Origin: Horticoccus luteus
GTDB lineage: Bacteria; Verrucomicrobiota; Verrucomicrobiia; Opitutales; Opitutaceae
Length of the DNA: 32,000 nucleotides
Direction of reading: 5' to 3'
Assembly (NCBI RefSeq): GCF_019464535.1
Contig: NZ_CP080507.1
Location: forward strand, 1,170,001-1,202,000
Part shown: in pieces, positions 23,053 to 28,852 of the stretch
Position numbering within the stretch: the stretch's first letter is position 1
Layout of the letters: each line of letters opens with the position of its first letter
Position numbers and translations under genes: made by a program
The notes under the pieces: model-generated
Told to the model about the DNA's origin: nothing
Databases searched by the model: none
Seen by the model: the letters and a program-made list of their open reading frames with translations, nothing else

Positions 23053-23381
23053 GCGGCGAAAAACACAGAGCCGCGCGCGAGTGGCAAGGCCGGGTTACGG
23101 CAGCAAAGAGTTTTCACGATAGCTGCCACGCGCCGGCTCGCCCAAGCAGATTTTGATCCGGGGCGCACCGGCGAGCGCGACGCCGCGGATGGCATCCAAG
23201 GGAGCAGAGGGCGGGGCGAGTGCGACCGCTTACCGCGCGTTCGCACGCCCGATTATTCGCAAGGTGGAATGTTAACAGCGCGCGGACGATGCGTGCCAAG
23301 TGCATTCGCGAATGGACCACGCCACAGTGAAAATCCCGAGCAGGAGGGCGCTTCCGGCCATGACGGGCGCCCATTGCCGCA

Positions 23382-23399
23382 CATGGTGGGCCCACCATG
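23382..23399. repeat. Perfect 18-bp palindrome catggtgggcccaccatg in a gene-poor gap (possible operator or hairpin)
   Basis: Read directly: c23382..g23399 is self-complementary over all 9+9 positions. It lies ~90 nt upstream of the candidate small ORF at 23489. Confidence 0.5.
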
Positions 23400-23488
23400 C
23401 GAGGCGCCCCAATTCGACCGGTTGCGTTACAGCCAGCCAAGCCCCAGACCTGCCGGCCAACGGTCTTTGCCCATATTGGAACGGTGCG

Positions 23489-23761
23489 ATGCTGGGCGTC
23501 TTTCTGGAATCGTCGTTGCTACAGCCCATTCTTCCGGCGCAACTCCGGCGAGCTTTTGCGGAACGCCCGGGCTCTCGCCTCAAGTCCGCAGACATTCATT
23601 CGCGATGGCTTGCTGCGGGCACGGAGAGATTGATGGCGCTCGGGCCGACCCTCGTCTTCATGGGCGCCCTGATGCTCGCTGGGGCAATATGGTTGTGGGC
23701 ACGCCGGCCGCGAATGCGCGATGATGACGAGGATGGTTTGGTTGGCGGAGTAATCCAATAG
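23489..23761 (+). CDS. Candidate 90-aa single-TM hypothetical protein (weak call)
   Basis: MLGVFLESSLLQPILPAQLRRAFAERPGSRLKSADIHSRWLAAGTERLMALGPTLVFMGALMLAGAIWLWARRPRMRDDDEDGLVGGVIQ has one clear hydrophobic helix followed by positive then acidic residues. Third-position GC is moderately high. No homology recognised, and competing ORFs exist on both strands. Confidence 0.3.
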   Translation: MLGVFLESSLLQPILPAQLRRAFAERPGSRLKSADIHSRWLAAGTERLMALGPTLVFMGALMLAGAIWLWARRPRMRDDDEDGLVGGVIQ

Positions 23762-23945
23762 CTCAATAGGCAGGCCCTGATCTTCTGACTAGAGTGGCAT
23801 GTGGCACGCGTGGCGGAGCCAAGTCCCGGCCAAAGCGCGCGTACCTCCGCCCTGTGTCATGCACGGCCGCTCGCCGAAATTGGCGGAAATAAACCGAGCA
23901 AGTTCGGCGCGGTGGCTCGGCGCATTTCGACGGAACTGAGGCGAG

Positions 23946-24671
23946 CTACGCAAAGGCACCCACGGCATTGAAGCCATAAGGCCGTTTTTCTCCCGACGCG
24001 AGGAGCACCAGATCTTCGGGGTAAGTGATCTTCACGTTGCGCGGCGAGCCTTCCACGAGATGCACGGGGGTGTCGGTATGCATCACCAGCGCCGCGGTGC
24101 TGTCTTCGAGCCAGTTGTTTTCGGCGGCGAGCGCATAGGCGTGTTCGAGCAGGGAGCGCCGGTAGCCGTGCGGGGTTTGCAGCGTGACGACGTCTTTTCT
24201 CGGGAGCGCGCGTTCGAGGACGCCGTCGCGGGAAAGAGCGATGCTGTCGCGCACGGGAATCGGAAGGTAGGACACGACGGCGTCGTGCTCACCGAGCGCG
24301 GCGATGATCCGCCGGATTTCGGTCGGCTGCACCCACGGGCGCGCGACTTCGTGGATCAACAAATACGGCGTATGCGTCGCGGCGATCAGCCGGCGCAGCG
24401 TGTCCTGACGGGTGTCGCCGCCGGCGACGCATTCGACGGGAACCGACAGCGAGAGGGCTGCGACCTGTTGGTGCGAAGAGGAGAGGTCGCAGGCGCGCAC
24501 GCCGACGACGATGCGCCCAACCAGCGGCTCCATGAGCTGCACGGCGTGCTGGAGGAGCGTAGCTCCACCGAGTTCGAGGAAAGCCTTGGCGATGCCGCCG
24601 AGGCGGCGGCCTTCCCCGGCGGCGAGAATGACGGCGGTGAGGTCGCGCGAAGAAACAGGGGAAGTCGGCAT
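23946..24671 (-). CDS. ispD: 2-C-methyl-D-erythritol 4-phosphate cytidylyltransferase
   Basis: TAVILAAGEGRRLGG..KAFLEL, VAGGDTRQDTL, LLIHEVARPWV, VVTLQTPHGYR and NVKITYPEDL fit the IspD motif series (AAG.G.R, GG.tR.dSv, iHDaaRP, QTPq.F, N.KiT.peDL). Confidence 0.85.
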   Translation of the reverse strand: MPTSPVSSRDLTAVILAAGEGRRLGGIAKAFLELGGATLLQHAVQLMEPLVGRIVVGVRACDLSSSHQQVAALSLSVPVECVAGGDTRQDTLRRLIAATHTPYLLIHEVARPWVQPTEIRRIIAALGEHDAVVSYLPIPVRDSIALSRDGVLERALPRKDVVTLQTPHGYRRSLLEHAYALAAENNWLEDSTAALVMHTDTPVHLVEGSPRNVKITYPEDLVLLASGEKRPYGFNAVGAFA

Positions 24672-24796: not shown

Positions 24797-26707
24797 TTAG
24801 AGCACTTGCAGCGTTTTGCGATAAAACGCCACGACTTCGTCGGGATCGTCGGTAAAAAGGACGTAGTCGGCCATCCACGCGGGGGCCCGTTTCGAGCGGA
24901 TCATTTCGCGGAATTGTTTGCGCAGGTCGGTCCAGTAGCTCGCGTTGAAAAACACGTAGGGAACGCGGGGGCGGATGCCGAGTTTGAGGTTGCAGAGCTC
25001 GATGCCGATTTCCTCGAGCGTGCCGACGCCGCCGACGTTGAAGATACAGAAATCGGCGCTCTCGAACCATTTTTGGCGAAAGTGGCGTGCCGATTCTTGA
25101 AAGGTGTTGAAGAAATCCACGCCGAGCTCGGGCGGTTGGGCTTCGAGTTCGAGGAAACATGCGCCGGTGAGGGCGCCTTTGTTGCGGGCTTGGTCGGTAG
25201 CGAGCCGCATGACGCCGCCGCCTCCGCCGGTGAGCACGCCGAGATTACCGCCGAGGAAGCCGGTGAGCTTGTCGACGAGGGAGGAGATACGGTCGGTGTC
25301 GGCTTGGTCGAGGCCGACGGCGGAGCCGTAGAATGCGAGGATGGTGGATTCCTGGAACTTGCGGGCCATCTCCTCGCGGACGAAGAAACCGTGGCCGCGT
25401 TTGTAGGTGTGCAGATAGAGATCCTGCGTGACCTCATCATACCAGTAAACCTGCATGCCGATGGCGTTGAACGTATCGAGGCGGGCGTGGGCGTTGCTGG
25501 AGAGAAAATAGCCGTGGGTGCGGGAGGCGTGGCGGAAGATGATGCGCTTGAGCTTCACGTCGCCCAGGCGGGTGATGAGTTCGATGTGTTCGAGCAGGTC
25601 AGGGAAGTAGTCGACGACCAGCGTGTCGGCGGAACCGGGCGCGCTGTCGAGTGCTTGGATGAGCGTGCGGCTGCCGAGCGGGCACGCCTCGCCTTCCAAG
25701 AGGTGGCGCAACTCCTCGTCATTGACGCGGACGAGGCTGGTGCGGTTCTCCATGGTGGCGCTCTGGCCGCGCACAGTGATTTTGGTTTTCGGCGCCGGGG
25801 CGTTGTTTTCGCGAGGCGGGGATTCGTCGAGGCACTTGAACAGGCTGGTGGTGGTGCTGAGGAGGCGCTGGCGTTTTTTGGTGAGGGTTTTCAGTTCGGG
25901 ATCCGAAAACGGAGGCGCGCCGTATATTTCGACGGAGACGACGGGATTCACCACGGGTTGATCACCGGTGTTGTAGATCTCCAGCATGACATTGGTGCCA
26001 AACGTCTTCACCGGATCGAGCAGGACCGCGCTGGTGTGCAGGCCAAAGTTGCCGGCGCCTTGGTTGAGCACGACGAAGTGTTCTTTGAGATACATCGAGC
26101 AACTCGTGAGGATGCCCGACTGCGGCGGGATCATGAGGGGCGAAGCGTCGTGGCGGATCTGGACTTGGTCGAGGTAGCTGCGGCCGGCCTCGCCACTGAC
26201 GACGTGTTCGAAATTGGGGCGGAGGAGCTTGGGGTTGAGCGTGTAGTTAACCTGGTGCGGGGTGAGGAAGACGCGTCCGAGGCTGTCGATGCTGATGGTC
26301 TCGGGCAGCTTGAGGCGGTTTTCCTGAAGGGCAGCCCAGATGGCGGCGGTGGAGAGTTTGACGGCGGCGGGCGCGTAGAAGAGCCGCCCGACGGGGACGC
26401 CGGGGCGAAGGAGTTTCTTCCAATAGCTGGCGTGCGGAAAGCTGCCGTCGAAAATAAAGGCTTCGGCTTCCACCGCGAGGCGGTTGCCATCGACCACGGG
26501 TGGATGGGTGATGATCATCTCGATGCCGATGCGGGCGAGGGAACTGCGCTCGGTGAACTTGAGCGCGGCGAGATGGGTTTTCAGATATTCAAACTCGGCG
26601 GGATGGCGGGGCCAGAAGGCGAGGCTGAGCGTGACGGCGCGCTCGTCCTTGTTTTTCACGGTGAGAATCTGGCCGTCCTGGCTGGTCCAAAATTGGTCGA
26701 CTTGCAT
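24797..26707 (-). CDS. 636-aa multidomain protein: two dCTP-deaminase/dUTPase-fold repeats + unknown middle domain + C-terminal LOG (TIGR00730) domain
   Basis: Repeat 1: FTERSSLARIGIEMIITHPPVVDGNRLAVEAEAF...LLRPGVPVGRLFY (compare E. coli Dcd [33 protein letters not shown]...LRPGMLIGALSF). Repeat 2: GLHTSAVLLDPVKTFGTNVMLEIYNTGDQPVVNPVVSVEIY. LOG domain: ILAFYGSAVG, GVLTGGGGGVMRLA, CIFNVGGVGTLEEIGIE. ATG at 26707 preferred; the track start 26734 is a GTG. Confidence 0.85.
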   Translation of the reverse strand: MQVDQFWTSQDGQILTVKNKDERAVTLSLAFWPRHPAEFEYLKTHLAALKFTERSSLARIGIEMIITHPPVVDGNRLAVEAEAFIFDGSFPHASYWKKLLRPGVPVGRLFYAPAAVKLSTAAIWAALQENRLKLPETISIDSLGRVFLTPHQVNYTLNPKLLRPNFEHVVSGEAGRSYLDQVQIRHDASPLMIPPQSGILTSCSMYLKEHFVVLNQGAGNFGLHTSAVLLDPVKTFGTNVMLEIYNTGDQPVVNPVVSVEIYGAPPFSDPELKTLTKKRQRLLSTTTSLFKCLDESPPRENNAPAPKTKITVRGQSATMENRTSLVRVNDEELRHLLEGEACPLGSRTLIQALDSAPGSADTLVVDYFPDLLEHIELITRLGDVKLKRIIFRHASRTHGYFLSSNAHARLDTFNAIGMQVYWYDEVTQDLYLHTYKRGHGFFVREEMARKFQESTILAFYGSAVGLDQADTDRISSLVDKLTGFLGGNLGVLTGGGGGVMRLATDQARNKGALTGACFLELEAQPPELGVDFFNTFQESARHFRQKWFESADFCIFNVGGVGTLEEIGIELCNLKLGIRPRVPYVFFNASYWTDLRKQFREMIRSKRAPAWMADYVLFTDDPDEVVAFYRKTLQVL

Positions 26708-26852
26708 GGGGAAAAGGGGGCGACGATGGCGCACGGAGCGGACCGACTCAAGCGGGGACTAATTGGTTGCTTTCGGGGCCGGGCGCTGGCACATCCGACA
26801 ATTTACGGCACAAAGTTACAGCCGTCCGTTTCCCAGACCACTCCACTCCGAT

Positions 26853-27725
26853 ATGAAATCCACCTCCCTCCTCACCGCCTGCGCGTTGAGCCTCGCCGCT
26901 GTCGCGGCCGTGAGCGCACAGGAAGTCAAATTTTCGATCCCGGGCGCGCAAAGCGCGGCTCCGGCTGAGAATGCTGCCCCGGCGACGAAGTCGGCGCCGG
27001 GCGCGACGACCGCCCCCGCCGCGGCGCCCGCGCCGTCCTTCACGGACGCGCAGTTGATGGAGGAACTGGGTTGGTTCATGGGCAAGCGCCTTTCGATCAG
27101 CAATCTCGACCTCACGCCCGCCGAAGCGACGGCGCTCGGCAAAGGCATCCAGGCGGCGGCGCTCGACAAAGACGCTCCCTACGCGCTCGAGCAGGCTGGT
27201 CCCTTGATGGACGACCTCGTCCAGAAGAAGCAGGGCGCGTATCTGGAGAAGTTGAAGGTGCAAAACCTCAACGCCGCCACGGCGTTCTTCAGCAAGCTCG
27301 GTGAAAACAAGAACGTCGTTTCGCAGCCCGACGGCTTGCGCTACGAAATCTTGCAGCCGGGCACCGGTCCGTATCCGAAGGCGACCGATACCGTGAAAGT
27401 GCACTACACGGGCAAGCTGATCGACGGCACGATTTTTGATACGTCGCTCCAGCCGCGCCAGCAGGGCGGCGCAGTCGAGCCGGCGGAATTTCGTCTCGAC
27501 AGTGTGATCACTGGCTGGACCGAGGGTCTGCAAAAGATCAACAAAGGCGGCAAAATCCGCCTCTACGTGCCGCCGCAACTGGCCTACGGCGATGAGCCGA
27601 AGGGTGCGATTCCTCCTGGCTCGGTGTTGATCTTCGACATCGAACTGCTCGACATCATCCCCGCCGCCGCGGCGCCCGCGCCGACCGTGACGCCTGGCCC
27701 CACGACTCCGTCGAGCGGCAAATGA
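26853..27725 (+). CDS. FKBP-type peptidyl-prolyl cis-trans isomerase (FkpA/Mip-like, secreted)
   Basis: Internal ATG at 26853. Signal peptide: MKSTSLLTACALSLAAVAAVSAQ. Mip/FkpA-type helical N-domain, then VKVHYTGKLIDGTIFDTS, VITGWTEGLQKINKGGKIRLYVPPQLAYG and SVLIFDIELLDI (FKBP_C). Confidence 0.9.
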   Translation: MKSTSLLTACALSLAAVAAVSAQEVKFSIPGAQSAAPAENAAPATKSAPGATTAPAAAPAPSFTDAQLMEELGWFMGKRLSISNLDLTPAEATALGKGIQAAALDKDAPYALEQAGPLMDDLVQKKQGAYLEKLKVQNLNAATAFFSKLGENKNVVSQPDGLRYEILQPGTGPYPKATDTVKVHYTGKLIDGTIFDTSLQPRQQGGAVEPAEFRLDSVITGWTEGLQKINKGGKIRLYVPPQLAYGDEPKGAIPPGSVLIFDIELLDIIPAAAAPAPTVTPGPTTPSSGK

Positions 27726-27754
27726 GCCCGCGCTGATTCCGAATCGTTTTGACC

Positions 27755-27783
27755 AACCTCCGGCTTTGCGCCGGAGGTTTTTT
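27755..27783 (+). terminator. Rho-independent terminator of the FKBP gene
   Basis: aacctccggc (27755-27764), loop tttgc, gccggaggtt, with a 6-T run at 27778-27783. It abuts the stop of the convergent threonine aldolase gene (27782). Confidence 0.8.
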
Positions 27784-28852
27784 ATTGGGCGCTGACGACG
27801 GCGCGAAGGTCGCCGAGGAAGGCGTCGAGGTCTGCGGGCTGCGTAGCCCATGAGCACATCAGGCGATAGCCGTGCTCACCCATCATCGCGTAGAAATGCC
27901 AGCCGCGGGCGAACAGGCCCTGCGCAACCGCGGGCGGAAGTTCGACGAAGACGGCGTTGGCTTCGACCGGCGCGAGCAGGCGCAGTGCGGGGAACGCCCC
28001 CAGTTCGCGGCCGAGACGCGCCGCCATCGCGTTCGCATGGGCGGCGTGGCGCAGCCATGCGTCGTCGCGCAACAACCCCAGCCATTGGGCGGCGAGGAAA
28101 CGCATTTTGGACGCGAGTTGGCCGGACTGTTTGCGCCGGTAGGCGAATTCCGCAGCGAGGGAGCGATTGAAGAACACGATCGCTTCCGTGCCGGCGGCGC
28201 CGTTTTTCGTGCCGCCAAAGCTCAGGACGTCGACGCCCGCTCGCCAGGTGAGATCCGCCGGCGTGGCGCCGGGGCGATCGCGCAGCGCGGCGGCGGCATT
28301 GGCGAACCGGGCGCCGTCGAGATGGACGGCGAGATTGTGGCGGCGGGCCGTCGCAGTGAGCGCCGCGATTGCGGCGGGCGAATACACGGTGCCCCATTCG
28401 GTGCTTTGCGTCAGCGAGAGCACGCGGGGTTTCGACGCGTGCACCTCGTGGTGCGACGACGCGGCCTGGTCGACCACGTCGGGCGAAAGTTTACCGAGCG
28501 AACCGGGCAATGGCACGACGCGGGCGCCGCCGGAAAAGAATTCGGGCGCCGCGCATTCGTCGCGTTCCACGTGGGCGTCGGCGTGCGCGAGGATCGCGTG
28601 ATAACTTGAACAAATGGACGCGAGGGACAGCGCGTTGGCGGCCGTGCCGTTATAGACGAAGAAGACTTCGCAGTCGGTCTCGAACAACGCGCGGATCCGA
28701 TCGGTGGCTTCGTGCGTGATGCGGTCGTGACCGTAGCTGGGCACGTGTCCGCGATTAGCCTCCGCGAGGGCGGCCAGGACCTCGGGGCAGACGCCGGCCG
28801 TATTGTCGCTGGCGAAAGCGTAGTTGTGCGCGGTCGGCGAGGCGTCGGGCAT
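27782..28852 (-). CDS. ltaE: Low-specificity L-threonine aldolase (beta-eliminating lyase family, PLP-dependent)
   Basis: YAFASDNTAGVCPEVLAAL, FVYNGTAANALSL, LSLTQSTEWGTVY, HLDGARFANA and LSFGGTKNG (PLP lysine). ATG at 28852; the track start 28858 is a TTG two codons upstream. Confidence 0.85.
   Translation of the reverse strand: MPDASPTAHNYAFASDNTAGVCPEVLAALAEANRGHVPSYGHDRITHEATDRIRALFETDCEVFFVYNGTAANALSLASICSSYHAILAHADAHVERDECAAPEFFSGGARVVPLPGSLGKLSPDVVDQAASSHHEVHASKPRVLSLTQSTEWGTVYSPAAIAALTATARRHNLAVHLDGARFANAAAALRDRPGATPADLTWRAGVDVLSFGGTKNGAAGTEAIVFFNRSLAAEFAYRRKQSGQLASKMRFLAAQWLGLLRDDAWLRHAAHANAMAARLGRELGAFPALRLLAPVEANAVFVELPPAVAQGLFARGWHFYAMMGEHGYRLMCSWATQPADLDAFLGDLRAVVSAQ

Follow-up and report, generated by a model that had tools for sequence, protein, structure and literature searches.

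The analyzed window is a 32,000-nucleotide stretch of the Horticoccus luteus genome (Opitutaceae, Verrucomicrobiota; contig NZ_CP080507.1). It carries a gene for a protein of four folded parts: a truncated barrel with the fold of dCTP deaminase (Dcd), a complete Dcd-fold barrel, an α/β domain, and a type-II-like LOG domain. According to the alignments, the Dcd catalytic residues are divided in complementary halves between barrels 1 and 2, and the two barrels may together build a composite site of the Dcd type in a single chain. We favor a reading in which this site, together with a nucleoside monophosphate (NMP) N-glycosidase, would make the protein a housekeeping enzyme of the pyrimidine-nucleotide pool, and we give this reading a probability of about 0.5. 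The gene is already in the databases, where it is annotated by its LOG domain only. The Dcd-like pseudo-dimer and the four-part architecture are annotated in none of the libraries scanned and described in none of the literature searched.

The complete coding sequence of the fusion protein (636 amino acids plus stop) lies at positions 24797..26707 of the window on the minus strand, as do all features of the protein given below. The list of open reading frames (ORFs) and the translation place the ATG at 26707 and the stop codon at 24797–24799. The product is 100% identical to a 636-residue NCBI protein of H. luteus, which is labeled “LOG family protein” at NCBI and “AMP nucleosidase” in UniRef. 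An in-frame GTG further upstream, at 26734, was rejected as the start because the homologs and the identical NCBI protein begin with MQVDQFW. The full-length AlphaFold (AF2) model has a mean predicted local distance difference test score (pLDDT) of 85 and a predicted template modeling score (pTM) of 0.82. The opposite strand contains a 720-residue ORF (24806–26968, plus strand) that spans the whole fusion gene and exceeds it in length. By appearance this is a typical shadow ORF of high-GC DNA, and ORF length alone would therefore choose the wrong strand.

The N-terminal 270 residues have, in the predicted model, the Dcd (jelly-roll) fold. The AlphaFold model of this segment is confident (pLDDT 88.9, pTM 0.86). 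When it was compared with the PDB using Foldseek, the top 15 matches were all structures of Dcd or of bifunctional dCTP deaminase–dUTPases (DCD-DUT) (4XJC, 2QLP, 2V9X/1XS4, 3KM3, 4A6A, 1OGH/1PKK, and 4DHK), with trimeric dUTPases ranking below them. These 15 matches have E values of 4.5e-6 to 4.5e-3, a probability of 1.00, template modeling (TM) scores normalized to the target of 0.53–0.68, and 164–194 aligned columns, which corresponds to the whole Dcd chain. The TM score normalized to the query is only ~0.4. This is expected, as one Dcd chain covers only one of the two barrels. In a library of viral structures, the best matches of the N-terminal model were phage dCTP deaminase/dUTPase.

Profile–profile comparison with hhalign resolved two modules. 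The E. coli Dcd reference sequence used for this comparison was checked and is identical to that of 1XS1. Module 1 (residues 1–116; 26360..26707; model pLDDT ~90) is a truncated Dcd-like barrel that holds only the phosphate side of the site, with motifs II and IV. Its residues 53–113 (ERSSLARIG...PGVPVGRL) align to E. coli Dcd 109–162 with an E value of 2e-5. An earlier note, made from the sequence alone, had placed a Dcd core with the RSSLAR motif at residues ~50–115, and this assignment holds. Module 2 (residues 117–270; 25898..26359) is a complete Dcd-like barrel that carries motif III, which binds the pyrimidine, and the deaminase Glu and has lost RSSxxR; it was delineated by Foldseek and hhalign. 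Residues 224–252 align to Dcd 121–147 with E values of 4e-3 to 5e-3. The stretches of Dcd aligned to modules 1 and 2 overlap, and both modules thus match the same Dcd catalytic segment. A second barrel that keeps MLEIYN and lacks RSS had also been anticipated, correctly, but at residues 215–290; it extends over about 117–270. A test for internal duplication between modules 1 and 2 gave no signal (hhalign, E 0.07–0.12).

The distribution of conserved residues over the two modules was examined in a cross-phylum alignment of 39 sequences from three phyla, from which all counts out of 39 below are taken. Motif II of module 1, RSSLARIG (residues 54–61; 26525..26548), is nearly invariant: R54 (38/39), S55 (39/39), R59 (38/39), and G61 (39/39) correspond to R110, S111, R115, and G117 of Dcd. 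The motif IV region, PGVPVGRL (residues 102–109; 26381..26404), is placed in register with PGMLIGAL of Dcd by hhalign and contains G107 (39/39) and R108 (37/39). The hexapeptide SQDGQI (26666..26683), in which D11 is conserved in 36 and G12 in 37 of the 39 sequences, is a candidate for motif I. At the position equivalent to Glu138 of Dcd, module 1 has L, F, or V across the family. The acidic residue that had been pointed out at the LE(F)YN strand is peculiar to the H. luteus protein.

Module 2 has the opposite complement. Its segment HTSAVLLDP...MLEIYN (residues 224–246; 25970..26038) provides motif III and the putative catalytic Glu, with H224 (39/39) equivalent to H121 of Dcd, A227 (35/39) to A124, D231 (38/39) to D128, P232 (37/39) to P129, E243 (39/39) to E138, and N246 (38/39) to N141. 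A variable loop replaces the RSSxxR stretch, and the absence of RSS is a trait of the whole family. The complete Dcd set, that is, the equivalents of Ser111, Arg115, Glu138, and Asp128, is present in neither barrel alone and only across both. The two modules had been described as tandem repeats. There are indeed two Dcd-fold modules, but they are not independent repeats; they look like complementary halves of one Dcd site.

Barrel 2 also carries a family-specific motif, TSCxMxLxxH (26078..26107), in which T201, C203, L207, and H210 are conserved in 36–37 of the 39 sequences. T201, C203, H210, and H224 are near-invariant (26036–26107), and neither C203 nor H210 has an equivalent in the set of catalytic residues listed for E. 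coli Dcd. The Cys/His/His cluster formed by C203, H210, and H224 might be a sign of a metal-binding or redox site, although canonical Dcd is not known to need a catalytic metal.

An active site shared between two barrels has precedents. In the trimers of the dUTPase superfamily, one active site is built by neighboring subunits (PMC12524310), and the active sites of the DCD family sit in inter-subunit clefts (PMC4827122). In the monomeric two-domain dUTPases of herpesviruses, domain 1 contributes motif III and domain 2 contributes motifs I, II, and IV to a single site; only the motifs facing this site are kept, and those on the unused surfaces have decayed (PMC12524310). This single-chain design has been placed exclusively in the herpesvirus dUTPases (PMC12524310). 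At the sequence level, the fusion protein resembles the herpesvirus enzymes (Epstein–Barr virus, EBV, 2BSY; PRV 8ZWQ) in the complementary retention of motifs over a duplicated barrel in one chain, and it may follow the same principle. By this analogy, barrels 1 and 2 would act like two adjacent subunits of a Dcd trimer, with one composite site per chain.

The differences from the herpesvirus enzymes are considerable. The order of the motifs is reversed, with II/IV (possibly I) followed by III here and III-I-II-IV-V there. The residues are of the Dcd type, including the deaminase Glu, and not of the dUTPase type as in the herpesvirus enzymes, and the protein is bacterial and fused to LOG. The herpesvirus dUTPases superpose poorly on the N-terminal model, with a root-mean-square deviation of 8.9–18 Å and TM scores of at most 0.35, and none is among the top 50 PDB matches. 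The arrangement is therefore analogous, and does not indicate membership of the herpesvirus dUTPase family. The best structural matches are the Dcd and DCD-DUT homotrimers of E. coli (1XS1/1XS4), M. tuberculosis (2QLP), B. halodurans (4XJC), and M. jannaschii (1OGH), which share the jelly-roll fold and the eight equivalents of R110, S111, R115, H121, A124, D128, E138, and N141 in register. Unlike these, the fusion protein has two barrels per chain with half a site each, barrel 1 is truncated, and two more domains are attached; it also differs in HMM-level (hidden Markov model) membership, the C-terminal lid, and the motif IV residue, which are taken up below.

The C-terminal domain (residues 456–636; 24800..25342) is a LOG (Lysine_decarbox/SLOG) phosphoribohydrolase domain, as the earlier note had recognized. 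PF03641 matches residues 544–626 with 36.7 bits (gathering cut-off 27, E 5.5e-9), and it is matched in all 20 family members scanned. The closest solved structures by sequence are type-II LOGs (5ZI9, 1WEK, 9US2, and 5WQ3). Foldseek aligned the domain to LOG crystal structures with an E value of 1.9e-11 and TM scores to the target of 0.72–0.82. The nucleotide-binding motif TGGGGGVM (GGGxGxM; residues 493–500; 25208..25231) has T493, G494–G496, G498, and M500 each conserved in at least 37 of the 39 sequences. The segment 25010..25087 contains R544 (38/39) and the GGxGTLEE motif with E566 (38/39); within 558-VGGVGTLEE-566, no fewer than 38 of the 39 sequences retain each of G559, G560, G562, T563, and E566. 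Type-II LOGs have a PGGxGTxxE motif, and their catalytic residues are Arg155 and Glu178 in CgLOGII (PMC5379747). In the alignment with 5ZI9, R544 and E566 fall on the catalytic Arg and Glu of the type-II LOGs. The conserved Arg/Glu pair, the motifs, and the predicted fold make the LOG domain look catalytically competent.

The type-II LOGs of C. glutamicum (Cg1261, 5WQ3), T. thermophilus (TT1465, 1WEK), S. coelicolor (5ZI9), and N. meningitidis (YgdH, 9US2) share with this domain the Rossmann-type fold (TM scores to the target of 0.72–0.76), the motifs, and the catalytic Arg/Glu. In the fusion protein, a structured extension of 455 residues precedes the LOG domain, whereas the type-II LOGs have a short helix or a disordered tail. 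PpnN, the (p)ppGpp-stimulated nucleotide 5′-monophosphate nucleosidase of E. coli (YgdH), is among the fold matches and likewise holds a LOG core within a larger multidomain protein. Its flanking domains are unrelated, however; there is no Pfam match besides LOG/SLOG, and the structural match is confined to the LOG core, ~200 of 450 residues.

The barrels and the LOG domain are separated by two segments. Residues 271–339 (25691..25897) consist of a long helix (272–295), a disordered low-complexity linker (299–317, pLDDT <50 in the AF2 model), and short helices. This is the least conserved part of the protein (65% within the Opitutaceae, 10% across phyla). It is followed by a confidently modeled α/β domain (residues 340–455; 25343..25690) with the predicted topology β-α-β-α-β-β-β-α. 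Its conserved residues include YFPN..EH, FRxAS..F.S..DH.R (FRxAS, F401, S403, and R409), W422, and F442. A low-complexity linker followed by about 120 residues without assignment had been expected here, and the middle domain indeed matches no Pfam family, either in the query or in the relatives scanned. Profile comparison found no similarity of the middle domain to the LOG domain or to the barrels. Against the PDB, its profile gave marginal matches only, all to the thioredoxin domain of DsbC just past the CxxC motif (best E 0.045). The predicted topology (β-α-β...β-β-α) fits the thioredoxin fold, but the cysteines are missing, and we regard this marginal likeness as a lead only.

The protein had been taken for an orphan, but it belongs to a large family. 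A word-indexed search scored more than 1000 homologs of the fusion protein. The best 120 of these are 78–84% identical to it and nearly all 634–637 residues long, with a few longer gene calls of up to 665 residues; the taxon-named entries among them come from Opitutaceae/Opitutales or Verrucomicrobiota. When the N-terminal 455 residues were used by themselves in an exhaustive HMMER search, 148 clusters (50% identity level) were obtained; their full-length members have 614–666 residues and identities down to ~25%. One genome for each GTDB species was scanned as well, and 579 stretches matched the fusion family. A profile built from divergent members retrieved proteins from Planctomycetota and from cultured Chromatiaceae, full-length relatives that nearly all have ~650–670 residues. 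The Chromatiaceae carriers are Thermochromatium tepidum, Thiocapsa rosea, Thiocystis violacea, and Marichromatium bheemlicum. The fusion family spans three phyla, represented by Opitutales, Planctomycetota, and Chromatiaceae.

A few members deserve separate mention. P0249 (693 residues) and P0262 (765 residues) are very divergent full-length proteins. P0249, from a seemingly low-GC host, has a degenerate motif II (EKTILAQLG) and a changed LOG motif (GGIGTDFE), and the Arg–Gln of the LOG site is apparently kept. As a possible natural variant with partial loss of function, it may help to separate the two activities. In P0232, a metagenomic protein of 600 residues, residues 319–387 of the fusion family are joined to GARS_N and GARS_A (purD) domains. 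A frameshift or misassembly probably produced this gene call, which then mirrors the adjacency of the fusion gene and purD and is no genuine fusion. Three stand-alone proteins with only the middle and LOG domains (P0225, P0226, and P0243) were considered as an independent module and rejected, as they look like incomplete gene calls.

In the window, the fusion gene is surrounded by ispD, purD, and genes for an FKBP isomerase, a β-eliminating lyase, shikimate kinase, a thioesterase, and a GT4 glycosyltransferase. Among 79 related Opitutaceae loci, 66 have purD downstream and in the same orientation, mostly within ~150 bp. In these loci SHMT is found ~2.6 kb beyond purD, and the FKBP gene is upstream and divergent. 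In H. luteus, ispD (23946–24671) is situated between the fusion gene and purD, but it was detected next to the fusion gene in none of these related loci; its position thus looks like a lineage-specific insertion or rearrangement. There is no terminator-like site between the fusion gene and ispD. The ~0.9-kb gap between purD and ispD (23053–23945) contains short Arg/Pro-rich ORFs on both strands, and no Rfam family or tRNA was found in it. The GC skew is positive in all 1-kb bins of the window (1–32000), with a maximum of 0.22, except for 27001–28000 (−0.009). The cumulative skew climbs almost monotonically, yet many genes near the fusion gene are on the minus strand.

More distant relatives have other neighbors. 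A HAD hydrolase gene follows one copy, and ilvC/leu genes stand beside another. The Chromatiaceae copies are divergent from yebC-ruvCAB, and the Planctomycetota copies have unrelated neighbors. A conserved operon was considered and rejected: the purD/SHMT adjacency occurs only in closely related Opitutaceae and is gone in Planctomycetota, Chromatiaceae, and other distant members. The median identity across the Opitutaceae loci is 78.8% for the fusion protein, compared with 80.9% for SHMT, 72.2% for purD, and 60.8% for aroK, and all four folded domains of the fusion protein are conserved in these loci (72–86%). The fusion gene is under housekeeping-grade constraint and has a housekeeping character.

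In the favored reading, the composite site would bind a cytosine (deoxy)nucleoside triphosphate and probably deaminate it, since Ser, Arg, and Glu are all retained; it may also hydrolyze it to the monophosphate. The LOG domain would cut the N-glycosidic bond of a nucleoside 5′-monophosphate to give the free base and (deoxy)ribose 5-phosphate. The middle domain would provide coupling or bind a ligand. The whole protein, a housekeeping enzyme encoded on the chromosome, would control or drain part of the pyrimidine nucleotide pool. A bolder version, which we consider doubtful, would make the family the first pseudo-dimeric, single-chain branch of the dUTPase/Dcd superfamily in cellular organisms, with a metal-independent composite deaminase wired to an N-glycosidase. 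In Opitutales, Planctomycetota, and purple sulfur bacteria, it would be a so far unrecognized one-enzyme route for draining or sanitizing the pyrimidine deoxynucleoside triphosphate (dNTP) pool. This route would start from a cytosine (deoxy)nucleoside triphosphate, perhaps a modified or non-canonical species, and proceed by deamination, dephosphorylation, and cleavage into base and sugar phosphate. Such a route would be a functional analogue of the eukaryotic DCTD/DNPH1 axis.

Several observations weigh against the composite deaminase–nucleosidase. The N-terminal half of the fusion protein matches no model in Pfam, NCBIfam, PADLOC, or PHROGs. In the query and 19 relatives, Pfam gave no match anywhere in the N-terminal 455 residues, and no Pfam or NCBIfam Dcd or dUTPase model matched at E values up to 1. 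The family profile of residues 1–270 found only noise among PDB sequences. Because no model of these HMM libraries detects the N-terminal half, the similarity to Dcd is visible only by profile–profile and structure comparison. For module 2, the sequence match to Dcd is weak (probability 7–9%), and its support comes mainly from the fold search. We infer that the whole-chain Foldseek alignment falls on module 2, because only residues 117–270 are long enough to accommodate a whole Dcd chain in sequence order; this placement is based on lengths. R108 is an Arg substitution at the motif IV position, which is Gln/Ala in Dcd. The protein lacks a clear equivalent of the C-terminal lid that covers the triphosphate in Dcd. 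In the LOG domain, TIGR00730 scores below its curated cut-off (31.7 vs 96.35 bits), and the leading Pro of PGGxGTxxE is replaced by V, I, or T in the fusion family. Sequential coupling, dCTP → dUMP → uracil, would destroy the precursor of dTMP and is metabolically odd. Finally, no conserved operon partner indicates a pathway in the contexts examined across the three phyla. The earlier note's remark that no characterized protein has such an architecture stands: in addition to the lack of Pfam, NCBIfam, and PADLOC models for the N-terminal half, the literature searches returned no fusion of Dcd or dUTPase with LOG.

The strongest rival, which we regard as possible, is that the Dcd-like barrels have no catalytic role and, as an allosteric sensor of a pyrimidine (d)NTP, switch the LOG nucleosidase on or off, in the manner of PpnN. 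The earlier note had already offered sensing by one module as an alternative to coupled catalysis. Dcd binds dTTP as a feedback inhibitor, and the LOG core of PpnN is controlled by (p)ppGpp bound to its flanking domains. LOG cores with regulatory flanks exist, PpnN itself is among the fold matches, and the enzymes of the DCD family are allosterically regulated by dTTP (PMC4827122). A sensor would also fit the loss of the Dcd lid and of HMM-level similarity as well as the Arg in place of Gln/Ala at motif IV, and it avoids the odd destruction of dUMP. Against it, the equivalents of S111, R115, and E138, the three residues that the chemistry of deamination specifically needs, are conserved in 39, 38, and 39 of the 39 sequences across three phyla, which is more than ligand binding alone should require.

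That the resemblance to Dcd is fortuitous, or that of a generic β-barrel, and that the protein is a LOG enzyme with an unrelated N-terminal extension, is unlikely. The lack of an HMM-level match to any Dcd or dUTPase family and the query-normalized TM score of only ~0.4 speak for it. On the other hand, the 15 best PDB matches come from one enzyme family at a probability of 1.00, the independent viral library agrees, and the conserved residues coincide one-for-one, and in register, with catalytic and binding residues of Dcd.

Still less probable is an anti-phage effector that depletes dNTPs, in which a defence-type dCTP deaminase would be combined with a nucleotide-degrading or SLOG sensor domain. 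Both dCTP deaminases and SLOG domains occur in defence systems, as the earlier note had pointed out (review: PMC13276650), and the anti-phage dCTP deaminases share the deaminase fold of the dUTPase superfamily. The fusion protein differs from them in having no PADLOC or PHROGs match. In ten contexts from three phyla (the window and nine others), the neighbors are housekeeping genes, with no defence or mobile-element gene except one transposase near the T. tepidum copy. The purD/FKBP synteny is stable over ~80 Opitutaceae genomes at SHMT-level identity, the opposite of what is seen for patchy, fast-evolving defence genes. These results bear out the earlier caution that defence is no more likely than a metabolic role. 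An artefact, that is, a frameshift or assembly error joining two adjacent genes, has a negligible probability and is excluded by the constant length of ~614–666 residues across phyla (apart from the two very divergent members noted above) and by the recurrence of this unbroken architecture in over 1000 proteins of independently assembled genomes, among them the complete genomes of T. tepidum and Thiocapsa rosea.

The analysis names S55, R59, R108, D231, E243, R544, and E566 as targets for mutagenesis, and H. luteus, T. tepidum, and Thiocapsa rosea are cultured sources of the protein. The 455 residues before the LOG domain escape Pfam and NCBIfam, and the family now has a testable hypothesis that goes beyond the labels “LOG family protein” and “AMP nucleosidase”. 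If the composite-site model is true, the monomerized design of the dUTPase superfamily would also have arisen in bacteria, this time among the deaminases and with the domains in the opposite order. A connection of a (d)CTP-recognizing site with an NMP N-glycosidase, as proposed here, could uncover a new control point of the pyrimidine pool.

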